64,000 bases of DNA. It comes from Escherichia phage KIT06. The stretch lies in the sequence record OQ349392.1. The stretch is one strand, 5' to 3'. The stretch's first letter is position 1. Every line of letters begins with the position of its first letter. Below the pieces are notes generated by a model, which saw only the letters and a program-made list of their open reading frames with translations, was not told the DNA's origin and made no database searches. Positions 4,101 through 51,183 of this stretch are shown one piece after another. The position numbers and the translations under genes were made by a program.

Positions 4101-4463
4101 ATGAAAGCATATCAAATTCTTGAAGGCACGCATAAAGGTACTATTTATTTTGAAGACGGTATTCAAGCACGAATTATTGTCTCTAAAACTTTTAAAGAGG
4201 ACTCTTTTGTAGACCCAGAAATTTTCTATGGTTTGCATGCCCGTGAAATTGAAATTGAAACACAACCTACAGTTAAAATTGAAGGTGGTCAACACCTGAA
4301 CGTTAACGTTCTGCGTCGTGAAACTCTGGAAGATGCAGTTAAGCATCCGGAAAAATATCCGCAGCTGACCATCCGTGTATCCGGTTATGCAGTTCGCTTT
4401 AACTCTCTGACTCCGGAACAGCAGCGCGACGTTATCGCTCGTACCTTTACTGAGAGTCTGTAA
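4101..4463 (+). CDS. autonomous glycyl-radical cofactor (GrcA/YfiD-like; T4 Y06I-like)
   Basis: C-terminal 60 aa [59 protein letters not shown] matches E. coli GrcA glycine-radical motif RVSGYAV; SD GAGAGG before ATG 4101. Confidence 0.8.
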
Positions 4464-48950: not shown

Positions 48951-49979
48951 ATGTCATCAATACCTTGGATTGATAATGAGTTTGCATACCGTGCGCTAGC
49001 TCATTTACCTAAATTCACACAAGTAAATAATAGTTCAACTTTTAAATTACGGTTTAGATGCCCTGTTTGTGGAGATTCAAAAACCGACCAAAATAAAGCC
49101 CGTGGATGGTATTATGGTGATAATAATGAAGGAAATATTCATTGTTATAACTGTAACTATCATGCACCAATCGGAATATATTTAAAGGAGTTTGAACCTG
49201 ATTTATATCGTGAGTATATCTTTGAAATAAGAAAAGAAAAAGGTAAAAGTCGTCCAGTAGAAAAACCTAAAGAACTTCCTAAACAACCTGAGAAGAAAAT
49301 AATTAAATCTCTTCCGTCATGTATTAGATTAGATAAACTGGCGGAAGACCATCCAATTATAAAATACGTAAAAGCTCGCTGTATTCCAAAGGATAAATGG
49401 AAATATCTTTGGTTTACAACCGAATGGCCTAAATTAGTTAATAGTATAGCACCAGGAACATACAAAAAGGAAATACCTGAGCCCCGTCTTGTTATTCCAA
49501 TTTATAATGCTAATGGAAAAGCTGAGTCTTTTCAAGGACGTGCATTAAAGAAAGATGCTCCCCAAAAATATATCACAATCAAAGCTTATCCTGAGGCAAC
49601 AAAAATCTATGGAGTCGAACGAGTCAAAGATGGTGATGTATATGTTCTAGAAGGACCTATAGATTCACTTTTTATTGAAAACGGTATAGCTATTACGGGT
49701 GGTCAATTAGACCTAGAAATTGTTCCATTTAAAGATAGACGTGTATGGGTTTTAGATAATGAACCTCGTCACCCTGACACTATTAAACGAATGACTAAAT
49801 TAGTTGATGCAGGAGAAAGGGTTATGTTTTGGGACAAATCTCCCTGGAAATCAAAAGATGTTAATGATATGATTAGAAAGGAAGGTGCAACCCCTGAACA
49901 AATTATGGAATATATGAAAAATAATATTGCACAGGGGTTGATGGCTAAAATGCGGCTATCTAAATATGCTAAGATTTAA
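48951..49979 (+). CDS. 61: DNA primase gp61
   Basis: 342 aa as in T4; zinc-binding CPVCGDS...CYNC and TOPRIM-like region. Confidence 0.95.
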   Translation: MSSIPWIDNEFAYRALAHLPKFTQVNNSSTFKLRFRCPVCGDSKTDQNKARGWYYGDNNEGNIHCYNCNYHAPIGIYLKEFEPDLYREYIFEIRKEKGKSRPVEKPKELPKQPEKKIIKSLPSCIRLDKLAEDHPIIKYVKARCIPKDKWKYLWFTTEWPKLVNSIAPGTYKKEIPEPRLVIPIYNANGKAESFQGRALKKDAPQKYITIKAYPEATKIYGVERVKDGDVYVLEGPIDSLFIENGIAITGGQLDLEIVPFKDRRVWVLDNEPRHPDTIKRMTKLVDAGERVMFWDKSPWKSKDVNDMIRKEGATPEQIMEYMKNNIAQGLMAKMRLSKYAKI

Positions 49980-50176
49980 ATTAACCCAACTAAAGCAAAT
50001 GCTAAATCTACGAATGTATCAAGAGTAATTACTGGAATACTAACGCCATGAGCAATAGCAACTGGCGATAAAACAAAATTCCAAAGTAAAATTCCTATCA
50101 TAGCAGAAATAGTAAAAGCTATACGTTTTTTATTACCTTTGATGGCATTAACAAGTGCCATTAATTTTTGTACCAT
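49976..50176 (-). CDS. hypothetical small membrane protein (convergent with gene 61)
   Basis: 66 aa, two hydrophobic segments; minus-strand SD AAGGAGG 5 nt upstream of ATG; fills otherwise ORF-free 270-nt gap between 61 and 56. Confidence 0.45.
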   Translation of the reverse strand: MVQKLMALVNAIKGNKKRIAFTISAMIGILLWNFVLSPVAIAHGVSIPVITLDTFVDLAFALVGLI

Positions 50177-50187
50177 ATGTCCTCCTT

Positions 50188-50213
50188 ATTGCTTTATATA
50201 TTTATTGTATAAT
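50188..50213 (+). promoter_or_regulatory. possible MotA-dependent middle promoter upstream of gene 56
   Basis: MotA-box-like ATTGCTTTA 50188-50196, TATAAT at 50208-50213. Confidence 0.35.
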
Positions 50214-50249
50214 TAATCTACTAACCCATGAATTGAAAGGAAAAATAAC

Positions 50250-50768
50250 ATGCCACATTTTAACGAATGTAGTCATCTGATCGAAGGCGCTGATAAAGCT
50301 CAAAATGAATACTGGGATATTCTCGGTGATGAAAAAGACCCGCTGCAGGTTATGCTTGATATGCAGAAATCTTTGCAGGTTCGTTTAGCTAAAGATAAAC
50401 CTGAATATAACCGTCATCCTGATGATTTGGCTACTGCTGGTGAAGTTGTTGATTGGCTGCGTAATCAGAAAGATTATATTGATGATGAATTCCGCGAACT
50501 TCTGACTTCTCTTGGCGGTATGAGCAATGGCGAAAAAGATGCATCTGCTGTATGGAAACCTTGGAAGTCACAGCACGGTGAACGCCGTGAAACTCTAATT
50601 ACTGATTTGTCTCCACAAGACCAGTTAGAAATTAAATTCGAAATGATTGATATTCTTCATTTCGTTCTGAATATGTTCCAAGGTCTCGGTCTTACGGCTG
50701 AAGAAATCTTTAAACTTTATTATCTGAAAAATGCTGAAAACTTCGCTCGTCAAGATCGAGGTTATTAA
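50250..50768 (+). CDS. 56: dCTP pyrophosphatase gp56
   Basis: 172 aa, MazG-like; MPHFNECSHLIEGADKAQNEYWDILGDEKDP... matches T4 gp56 as recalled. Confidence 0.92.
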   Translation: MPHFNECSHLIEGADKAQNEYWDILGDEKDPLQVMLDMQKSLQVRLAKDKPEYNRHPDDLATAGEVVDWLRNQKDYIDDEFRELLTSLGGMSNGEKDASAVWKPWKSQHGERRETLITDLSPQDQLEIKFEMIDILHFVLNMFQGLGLTAEEIFKLYYLKNAENFARQDRGY

Positions 50769-50977
50769 TGGCTCGTTTAAATAAACGCCAGCTTAAGAAA
50801 GCCCGCAAGAAACGTATTGACCAGCTATTTAAAAATTATGACAAAGAGCTCGTATGTGAGCTCTTATCTAATCAGCTTCGTGTGGTTGATTGGGTTGATT
50901 GGGTTGTAGAAGAAGGTCCTGATGAAATTTTTGTCAGCGAAGAAGCCTTAAAATTAATTATAGAACATTCAAAATGA
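50768..50977 (+). CDS. hypothetical protein
   Basis: 69-aa basic ORF, overlap with gene 56 stop. Confidence 0.45.
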   Translation: MARLNKRQLKKARKKRIDQLFKNYDKELVCELLSNQLRVVDWVDWVVEEGPDEIFVSEEALKLIIEHSK

Positions 50978-51183
50978 AATTTGATTTTTATGCATGGCAA
51001 AAAGCCGGGAGACCGGCTAGTCGAGCATTTGGTTCTGATGGATATAATATTAGAGCCCATTGGAAATTTAATGCTCCAGAAGATTATTCTCCGGTAATTA
51101 TTAACGGCGATGTTGTTATATTAACTAAAATCGGGTATTTTAACGTTCCGCGAGAATTTATTATAAATAATCATGTAATTTAA
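50974..51183 (+). CDS. hypothetical protein
   Basis: 69-aa ORF, ATGA overlap. Confidence 0.45.
   Translation: MKFDFYAWQKAGRPASRAFGSDGYNIRAHWKFNAPEDYSPVIINGDVVILTKIGYFNVPREFIINNHVI
51162..51169 (+). promoter_or_regulatory. T4 late promoter motif upstream of soc
   Basis: TATAAATA about 30 nt upstream of soc ATG; soc is a late gene. Confidence 0.55.

Follow-up and report, generated by a model that had tools for sequence, protein, structure and literature searches.

A conserved gene for a predicted small membrane protein converges on the primase gene of T4-like phages

Escherichia phage KIT06 carries a 66-codon open reading frame, ORF66, on the minus strand between the genes for DNA primase (gene 61) and dCTPase/dUTPase (gene 56). 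Analysis of a 64,000-nucleotide stretch of its DNA (OQ349392.1; hereafter the window) and comparison with related phages lead us to regard ORF66, with a probability of about 0.8, as a genuine conserved gene of T4-like phages that encodes an inner-membrane protein and is most likely expressed late from a promoter with the octamer AATAAATA. Many records already annotate this ORF as "hypothetical protein", RB69ORF029w being one instance.

Results

An open frame that meets gene 61 stop to stop

ORF66 (49976–50176, minus strand) starts with ATG and ends where the primase gene ends. Gene 61 (48951–49979, plus strand) encodes 342 residues with 98.5% amino acid identity to T4 gp61 and is annotated as DNA primase in every matching record. 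Its stop codon TAA (49977–49979) and that of ORF66 (the complement of 49976–49978) have the palindrome TTAA in common, a stop–stop overlap of 4 nt (49976–49979, both strands). Annotated coordinates give the same overlap in phages fPS-2, JK42, phiC120, RB69, Marfa and CIP9; in VR26, which has two paralogues, the 4-nt overlap with gene 61 is that of the second. At the other end, the Shine–Dalgarno sequence AAGGAGG (50181–50187, minus strand; CCTCCTT on the plus strand) stands 4 nt before the ATG, and each of the 11 homologues examined has GGAGG or GGAG in the corresponding position.

When this stretch is read in six frames, that of ORF66 is the sole open one, the other five containing 2–9 stops. 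Of random 274-nt sequences with the composition of the window, 0.4% contain a complete ORF that begins with ATG and spans 66 codons or more. The window holds 37 minus-strand ATG ORFs of at least 60 amino acids, among which ORF66 alone sits in a gap between plus-strand ORFs: 2% of it is overlapped, compared with at least 76% of each of the others. A preliminary description of the sequence had called it the only convincing minus-strand gene in the window, with 66 residues, the AAGGAGG sequence and the 4-nt overlap with gene 61, and each of these points was borne out.

A family with conserved synteny

ORF66 matches the phrog_2024 profile HMM over its full length (E = 1.9e-30; residues 2–66 on profile positions 1–65 of 65). 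Two subfamilies can be told apart, A, to which ORF66 belongs, and B; members of subfamily B and those from Mosigvirus match phrog_2024 too, and the category of this PHROG is "unknown function". Orthologues include RB69ORF029w and RB32ORF030w, together with an ORF of T4 that has no CDS in either T4 record examined. RB69ORF029w and RB32ORF030w are as long as ORF66 and occupy the same site, where they converge on gene 61 at its 3' end; nothing material sets ORF66 apart from them, and it is a plain member of the family. A protein 100% identical to ORF66 is present in phages IME339 and VIPECOOM02, where the features are annotated "hypothetical protein".

Homologues were detected by tblastn in 692 phage records. 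When 1.84 billion cluster representatives were searched with a profile, only six clusters came up, every one within the family of ORF66 itself. A scan of IMG/VR for related loci gave only five near-identical ones, and the diversity described here was taken from GenBank phage records. In T4-like phages sampled from eight genera (Tequatrovirus, Mosigvirus, Gaprivervirus, Dhakavirus, Marfavirus, Kanagawavirus, Mosugukvirus and Gelderlandvirus), the ORF lies on the strand opposite to gene 61 and abuts its 3' end.

Conservation acts on the protein

Judged by its substitutions, ORF66 is under purifying selection. In most of the informative within-genus pairs (Tequatrovirus, Mosigvirus), dN/dS is 0.07–0.2. 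Between genera, synonymous sites are saturated (pS 0.70–0.93), as against a pN of 0.13–0.35. In the nine Tequatrovirus-type copies that were compared, the variable columns fall 7/2/11 on the three codon positions. Residues W32, N33, P38, A40, G44 and P48 are invariant in both subfamilies.

The same DNA also carries a feature of the opposite strand. A terminator-like hairpin with a T run (50139–50174, plus strand; 11-bp stem, 4-nt loop) lies within codons 2–13 of ORF66, in a region that has two terminator-like sites where 0.7 are expected. The centroid fold retains the hairpin, and the annotation of fPS-2 has a terminator at this position. It probably marks the end of the gene 61 mRNA, whose predicted 3' untranslated region (UTR) would take in ORF66 as a whole, up to 2–6 nt from its start codon. 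Moreover, no gene is annotated here in the T4 records NC_000866.4 and MT984581.1 or in X01416 from 1984. These observations would suit an ORF that is open by accident, in a region conserved as non-coding DNA or RNA, either as the gene 61 3' UTR with its terminator or as part of the oriA region. Against this explanation stand the protein-type substitutions with their low dN/dS and a frame of 63–74 amino acids kept across the eight genera. The hairpin, judged by eye from the alignment, has no evident counterpart in Mosigvirus and Gaprivervirus, although the ORF, the Shine–Dalgarno sequence and the upstream motif are kept there, and the annotated oriA point of T4 is inside gene 56. On the codon-level pattern and this apparent absence, we rejected the plus-strand hairpin as the source of the conservation, and we hold an accidental ORF to be highly improbable. 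The proposal that ORF66 is a genuine gene is supported by its open frame, purifying selection, family and synteny.

A probable late-promoter octamer inside a predicted middle promoter

The late-promoter octamer AATAAATA (50199–50206, minus strand) lies 22 nt upstream of the ORF66 ATG and matches TATAAATA at seven of eight positions. Late genes of T4, which depend on gp55, gp33 and gp45, carry an octamer of this type near the gene start, some one helical turn before transcription begins. Octamers of this class are depleted in the window (8 sites compared with 25 expected), and six of the eight stand 13–30 nt before ORF starts. Two of the genes preceded in this way we take, from their N-termini, to be e and 49; another is soc, identified also by annotation, whose late promoter is annotated in the T4 record X01416. 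ORF66 resembles these late genes in the early region of T4, which likewise have an octamer 13–30 nt upstream and mostly a Shine–Dalgarno sequence, in a genome that avoids the octamer. It differs from them in its strand, as soc, e and 49 share that of the early genes and ORF66 lies opposite, and in its octamer, the A(-13) variant; its late timing is predicted. A(-13) is the commonest variant of TATAAATA in T4, accounting for 9 of 50 listed sites (PMC2988020).

In 9 of the 10 sequence contexts, the ATAAATA core stands at -20 to -29 relative to the start codon, for which reason we read ORF66 as a late gene and, going by this promoter motif, as probably dependent on gp55. The octamer is a perfect TATAAATA upstream of the homologue in Marfa and CIP9 and has G or C at -13 in T4 and VR26, the T4 counterpart on the clockwise strand being GATAAATA; upstream of the CGG4-1 homologue, there is no clear match. 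VR26_032, which is also without the motif, follows VR26_031 at a distance of 8 nt and is the second of the two paired genes; an operon would predict this lack. Given the distance of 22 nt between octamer and start codon, the predicted leader of ORF66 is about 17 nt long and includes the strong Shine–Dalgarno sequence. Searches of the literature on T4 ribosome profiling, start-site mapping and the dam/56/primase interval yielded no study relevant to ORF66 and no data on its expression, and searches under the names RB32ORF030w and RB69ORF029w found no mention of the ORF.

AATAAATA sits inside the spacer of the plus-strand middle promoter of gene 56. This gene (50250–50768, plus strand; 172 amino acids) has a product with 74% amino acid identity to T4 gp56 and 90% to JS98 gp56, and relatives annotate it as dCTP pyrophosphatase. 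The MotA-type promoter (50190–50213, plus strand) has a MotA box TGCTTTA, separated by 11 bp from the -10 sequence TATAAT, in agreement with the MotA-box-like element that had been pointed out upstream of gene 56. MotA-dependent promoters have a box (a/t)(a/t)TGCTT(t/c)A at about -30, followed after 11–13 bp by a sigma-70 -10 sequence TAnnnT. In the window, the TGCTTTA–TATAAT type of pattern is found 13 times where 4.8 are expected, 11 of the 13 on the plus strand, and none of 100 shuffles reaches 13. The promoter aligns to P(M)16.53 of T4, which has the same TGCTT(T/A)A box and TATAAT ahead of the conserved gene 56 leader ATGAATTGAAAGGAAAA; the gap between the MotA box and the -10 sequence is 11 nt in the window and 12 nt in T4. 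X01416 places the mot-box of P(M)16.53 and its -10 directly upstream of "69"/56; the oriA note of NC_000866 identifies the primer RNA as the gene 56 transcript; and in fPS-2, a predicted middle promoter is annotated at the same place. By position, this promoter is the orthologue of P(M)16.53, which is tied to oriA, and it would be used by MotA/AsiA. P(M)16.53 follows dam in T4, whereas the promoter here abuts ORF66 and overlaps its late octamer, and a role at an origin is suggested by position.

Because of the overlap, part of the conservation of the octamer could serve the other strand. In the T4-type context with dam, the motif is kept without overlapping the middle promoter. In the arrangement found in the window, a single stretch of 25 bp would serve as promoter to the right at middle times and to the left at late ones.

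Antisense geometry

If the gene 61 mRNA ends at the hairpin, its 3' UTR runs antisense to almost all of ORF66. In the other direction, no intrinsic terminator was found on the minus strand for at least 3.4 kb downstream of ORF66, so that late ORF66 transcripts would be antisense to 61, 61.1 and 61.2. In T4, both strands undergo transcription at distinct times at several sites (PMC2988020). This layout could be taken to mean that ORF66 belongs to a type I toxin–antitoxin-like or antisense pair, either as a peptide held in check by the primase 3' UTR, which would come within 2–6 nt of its start, or through a late transcript whose main purpose would be to silence gene 61 late in infection. The argument is one of geometry throughout, and in CGG4-1 gene 61 and the ORF66 homologue do not overlap. 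Selection at the protein level implies, in addition, that the peptide matters and that the element is not only an antisense RNA. We think such a pair improbable.

A predicted inner-membrane protein

ORF66 is strongly hydrophobic (GRAVY 1.29). Residues 19–42 have a mean Kyte–Doolittle value of 2.0 and are preceded by five basic residues within positions 4–18 (K4, K13, K16, K17 and R18). AF2 places helices at 2–13, 16–42 and 52–63, with a moderate pLDDT of 75 from a seven-sequence alignment. Hydropathy and the AF2 model together give one clear transmembrane helix of 24–27 residues, at about 16–42, with a basic flank; an integral membrane protein would need one hydrophobic helix of about 20 residues with basic residues on its cytoplasmic side. 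Of the two hydrophobic helices in the preliminary description, this one stands; the second, at 52–63, is shorter, contains two acidic residues that are conserved within subfamily A, and is a candidate span only. We conclude from this topology that ORF66 is a putative small inner-membrane protein. Its N-terminus would be basic, amphipathic and probably cytoplasmic, its single long transmembrane helix would bear the invariant W-N...P motif, and its C-terminus would form a short acidic hydrophobic helix.

Searches for a function by homology gave no Pfam match at E ≤ 10 and none in NCBIfam. A sequence profile search of the PDB matched nothing beyond an NqrE transmembrane helix, at chance level (E = 0.019); a fold search of BFVD returned only family members and noise; and the profile search of 1.84 billion representatives provided no link to any characterised protein.

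A small phage protein that is inserted into the membrane and made late, as topology and promoter motif suggest for ORF66, could be a holin, an antiholin or another lysis-timing factor. A homologue in vB_EcoM_OE5505 carries the label "Holin" in UniProt and in UniRef/BFVD, and the fold of ORF66 bears a weak resemblance (E > 5) to those of some phage holins. However, that name stands alone and unsupported, the remainder of the 33 clusters being called hypothetical, and ORF66 matches no holin family in Pfam or PHROG, phrog_2024 itself being classed as "unknown function". Its C-terminus (...DLAFALVGLI) is hydrophobic and acidic, in contrast to the typical basic, hydrophilic tail of holins. The gene is not close to e, t, rI or the spanin genes and has primase and dCTPase genes for neighbours, and T4 already has a defined holin, T. 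We therefore rejected holin as a family assignment, since there is no family match, no hydrophilic charged tail and no linkage to endolysin or spanin genes, and we regard a lysis-timing role of any such kind as unlikely. An accessory function in the envelope or in lysis timing is a guess that we hold weakly.

The slot for dam

The preliminary description had ORF66 standing where T4 carries dam and gene 69. Comparison with T4 alters this picture. T4 has the same ORF, with 92–94% amino acid identity, beside dam, in the 309-bp gap between dam and gene 61, and this gap has no CDS in NC_000866.4 or MT984581.1. As the alignment has it, ORF66 does not replace dam, which forms a separate cassette of about 0.9 kb between the Shine–Dalgarno sequence of ORF66 and the middle promoter of gene 56. 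As for gene 69, which had been placed together with oriA between 61 and 56, the "69" of X01416 is one frame that runs from the start of gene 56 through the present segF, and "69*" is segF. This obsolete fused frame puts gene 69 downstream of gene 56.

The absence of dam at this locus, which had been claimed as well, was confirmed. Genes 61 and 56 are spaced by only 270 nt, with no Dam ORF between them, and a tblastn search of the 64-kb window with T4 Dam found no homologue (best E = 1.4). LF73P3, a complete relative with 96% identity, gave no Dam match at E ≤ 1 in 166,650 bp. That the loss is noteworthy, as had been implied, does not follow: a Dam at least 90% identical to that of T4 is found in about 182 phage records, compared with about 500 that have the Tequatrovirus-type ORF, and in Mosigvirus, Dhakavirus and others the order 61–ORF–56 is likewise without dam. 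Since most Tequatrovirus records are without dam, its absence is no distinguishing trait. The slot that separates ORF66 from the gene 56 promoter, filled in T4 and T2 by the gene for Dam (a GATC N6-adenine methyltransferase), is empty here; in one relative it holds a DpnII-like ORF plus dam, and in others an HNH homing endonuclease. By these contents, the slot is a variable insertion site.

Discussion

A more far-reaching reading makes ORF66 an unrecognised late gene on the clockwise strand of T4, hidden between dam and 61 and conserved in the enterobacterial T4-like phages sampled. It would code for a small membrane protein with a genuine phenotype that might concern, for instance, lysis timing, lysis inhibition or the integrity of the envelope, and expression of ORF66 or of primase would be tuned by the antisense overlap and the strand-switching promoter pair. 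We consider this full combination unlikely. The reading that we prefer, a conserved T4-like gene for an inner-membrane protein, most likely late, is of value chiefly for annotation. The RefSeq record NC_000866.4 and MT984581.1 omit a gene that comparison supports and that is annotated in hundreds of relatives; screens by proteomics, transcriptomics or knockout that take these T4 records as their basis will therefore miss it. The analysis also brings two corrections: no "gene 69" separates 61 from 56, and the lack of dam is common, ordinary variation. Finally, the overlapping promoters, a predicted middle one directed rightward and a predicted late one directed leftward, would provide a compact and testable case of temporal strand switching.

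ORF66 is a genuine minus-strand gene

This segment of the window is Tequatrovirus (T4-like), its plus strand running in the direction of the early genes. Its genes, in order, are 61.2, 61.1, primase gene 61 (48951–49979, plus), ORF66 (49976–50176, minus, 66 codons), dCTPase gene 56 (50250–50768, plus), two 69-codon ORFs and soc. The features that the preliminary description had ascribed to ORF66 were borne out: a length of 66 aa, a strong SD sequence (AAGGAGG, 4 nt ahead of the ATG; CCTCCTT on the plus strand, 50181–50187) and a 4-nt overlap with gene 61, both stops lying in a common TTAA (49976–49979). It is also the sole convincing minus-strand gene. Among the 37 minus-strand ATG ORFs of at least 60 aa within the window, only ORF66 is not buried in plus-strand ORFs, with 2% overlap versus at least 76% for all others. 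Each of the other five frames contains 2–9 stops across this stretch, and the chance of a complete ORF of such length in random 274-nt sequences of window composition is 0.4%.

The ORF66 protein was matched in 692 phage records by tblastn. Within Tequatrovirus and within Mosigvirus, dN/dS was 0.07–0.2 in most informative pairs, those with almost no differences being uninformative. Between genera, synonymous sites were saturated (pS 0.70–0.93 versus pN 0.13–0.35), with a divergent Kanagawavirus member as the exception. The reading frame was 63–74 codons long in all homologues compared. Judged by its sequence, ORF66 is a genuine gene.

A family of T4-like phages with uneven annotation

All ORF66 variants match a single family, phrog_2024, which has no assigned function. 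Subfamily A, which includes ORF66, occurs in Tequatrovirus, Mosigvirus and Gaprivervirus; subfamily B in Gaprivervirus, Dhakavirus, Marfavirus, Mosugukvirus, Gelderlandvirus and Kanagawavirus. Residues W32, N33, P38, A40, G44 and P48 are invariant in both, and in every case the homologue adjoins the 3' end of gene 61 on the strand opposite the early genes. Each other sampled genus has a single copy, and only Gaprivervirus has two: VR26 (L010 1995–2401) carries tandem paralogues 8 nt apart, VR26_031 (A) and VR26_032 (B), a pattern that points either to an ancestral pair that underwent reciprocal loss or to functional redundancy. When 1.84 billion cluster representatives were searched with a profile, only six clusters were returned, all inside the family, which therefore seems restricted to T4-like phages; those sampled here have Enterobacterales hosts.

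The T4 copy (92–94% aa identity) lies inside the 309-bp dam–61 stretch, in which neither NC_000866.4 nor MT984581.1 has a CDS. The homologue is likewise left unannotated in JS98, F48 and VR7. The RB69 orthologue is annotated as RB69ORF029w, RB32ORF030w is cited in another record, and IME339 and VIPECOOM02 encode proteins identical to ORF66 in features labelled "hypothetical protein"; the gene was thus already known as hypothetical. Two homologues are mislabelled, that of CGG4-1 (L019 1501–1725, BI049_gp026) as "dCTP pyrophosphatase" and that of OE5505 as "Holin". Overall, the family is an ordinary one of hypothetical genes that had already been annotated.

The interval between ORF66 and gene 56 is a variable insertion slot

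The preliminary description had placed ORF66 where T4 carries dam and gene 69, and had concluded that this phage would lack Dam methylase at this locus. Its observation of the sequence stood, and its interpretation stood in part: ORF66 is a gene, and dam is absent from the locus and throughout the 64-kb window, the part of the phage genome analysed, but neither the dam/69 placement nor dam loss as a notable trait was upheld. T4 has the same ORF between dam and 61, and in the alignment dam is a ~0.9-kb insertion between the ORF66 ribosome-binding site and the gene 56 middle promoter. Gene 69 was likewise misplaced. The 1984 T4 record X01416 shows "gene 69" as a single 1179-nt frame that begins where gene 56 starts, immediately behind mot-box promoter P(M)16.53; "69*" is shown as a 675-nt frame. 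Compared with the T4 RefSeq, these correspond to present-day 56+segF and segF, so "69" is an obsolete reading that lies downstream of 56 rather than a gene of the 61–56 interval.

The absence of dam is common. Dam proteins at least 90% identical to that of T4 occur in ~182 records, versus ~500 for Tequatrovirus-type ORF66 at 80% or more, and the 61–ORF–56 arrangement without dam is also found in Mosigvirus (RB69, JK42, phiC120) and Dhakavirus (JS98). For a Dam check we assembled the complete genome of Tequatrovirus LF73P3 (166,650 bp), which matches the window at 96% identity across 59 kb and shares its ORF–56 junction; tblastn with T4 Dam gave no match in it at E ≤ 1. At this variable insertion slot, lack of dam is a common polymorphism.

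Other insertions were seen here. In fPS-2 (L002 2148–2798), an HNH homing endonuclease gene of ~650 bp is inserted precisely between gene 56 and its middle promoter, as it is in the near-identical relatives LH2, GRNsp7, WL-3, JE01 and RPN226; this is the slot that dam occupies in T4. In L008 (IMGVR_UViG_2974787500_000001), a minus-strand 186-aa ORF (1341–1901) separates the ORF66 homologue from dam, whose start it overlaps by ATGA. Besides a D...EIK motif, the ORF shows Pfam matches to DpnII (GATC) and BanI endonucleases that are weak and below threshold (E = 0.0045, 16.8 bits versus a cut-off of 23). It may form with dam a phage-borne GATC restriction-modification pair.

The surrounding sequence is mosaic. 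A 1-kb query around ORF66 matched 739 phage records (top identity 98%), and a 12-kb query found no near-identical record (maximum ~97%), which marks the source as a mosaic related to known isolates. While gp61 (48951–49979) is 98.5% identical to that of T4, gp56 (50177–50768 side) is 74% identical to T4 and 90% to Dhakavirus JS98, which puts a breakpoint at the ORF66 locus; an exchange of gene 56 between genera seems to have taken place immediately downstream of ORF66. At 50768–51183, the two 69-codon ORFs fill the position of T4's homing endonuclease segF, which is absent from this locus. The second belongs to DUF7422 over its full length (E = 1e-46), and the pair resembles the T2 soc.1/soc.2 arrangement.

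A small hydrophobic protein

The ORF66 protein is strongly hydrophobic (GRAVY 1.29), with a basic, amphipathic N-terminus (five K/R across residues 4–18), a hydrophobic core (residues 19–42) and a C-terminal hydrophobic helix, with D53 and D57 in subfamily A members and E/H in those of subfamily B. AlphaFold placed helices at 2–13, 16–42 and 52–63 (mean pLDDT 75, from a shallow 7-sequence alignment). The positive-inside rule would place the N-terminus in the cytoplasm. ORF66 shares 54% identity with its Mosigvirus orthologue, versus 74% for gp61 and 80% for gp56; on these comparisons it is evolving quicker than the neighbouring proteins. Accessory membrane proteins typically evolve fast. Searches of Pfam, NCBIfam, PDB and BFVD yielded no functional lead, and the lone "Holin" label carried by one homologue is unsupported. 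We weakly prefer an accessory role in the envelope or in lysis timing.

Opposed predicted middle and late promoters

The MotA-like element noted upstream of gene 56 is present as TGCTTTA-N11-TATAAT at 50190–50213. This type of pattern occurs 13 times in the window (4.8 expected; no shuffle reached 13), with 11 of the 13 on the plus strand. The gene 56 promoter aligns with P(M)16.53, and a note in the T4 RefSeq links oriA priming to the transcript of gene 56.

Inside the spacer of this promoter, on the minus strand, lies a late-promoter octamer, AATAAATA (50199–50206), 22 nt upstream of the ORF66 ATG. Among listed T4 late sites, 32 of 50 are TATAAATA and nine carry A at -13 (PMC2988020); conservation of the -13 T is poor in other T4-like phages (PMC1524935). 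Sites of the WATAAATA class are three-fold fewer in the window than expected (8 observed versus 25; 8 or more in 100 of 100 shuffles), with sites at 1527, 1540, 4142(-), 8072, 21977, 50199(-), 51162 and 61487(-). Six of the eight stand 13–30 nt ahead of ORF starts, mostly with an evident SD: those of e (tandem), a 70-aa ORF at ~8105, gene 49, ORF66 and soc. We take e and 49 to be such from recognised N-termini; soc is also backed by annotation. No convincing ORF was found downstream of the minus-strand octamers at 4142 and 61487, which could drive antisense late RNAs.

An ATAAATA core lies 20–29 nt upstream of the start in nine of ten otherwise divergent contexts, including a perfect TATAAATA upstream of the Marfa and CIP9 homologues and a T4-type context without the overlapping middle promoter. 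Exceptions are VR26_032, second of its pair and 8 nt behind VR26_031, and CGG4-1, where no clear ATAAATA match was seen. From the octamer's position, the depletion pattern and the conserved core, we infer that ORF66 is probably a gp55-dependent late gene, with a predicted leader of ~17 nt. A literature search found no expression data for ORF66.

On the plus strand, an 11-bp terminator-like hairpin followed by a T run (50139–50174), annotated as a terminator at the corresponding position in fPS-2, looks like the gene 61 mRNA terminator. An mRNA ending there would have a 3' UTR antisense to nearly all of ORF66. Past ORF66, the minus strand showed no intrinsic terminator for at least 3.4 kb, so a late transcript would run antisense into 61.

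What these results add is evidence for ORF66 as a real and probably late gene that the examined T4 records omit. If gene 56 is transcribed at middle times and ORF66 late, the opposed, overlapping promoters would constitute a testable middle-to-late strand switch.
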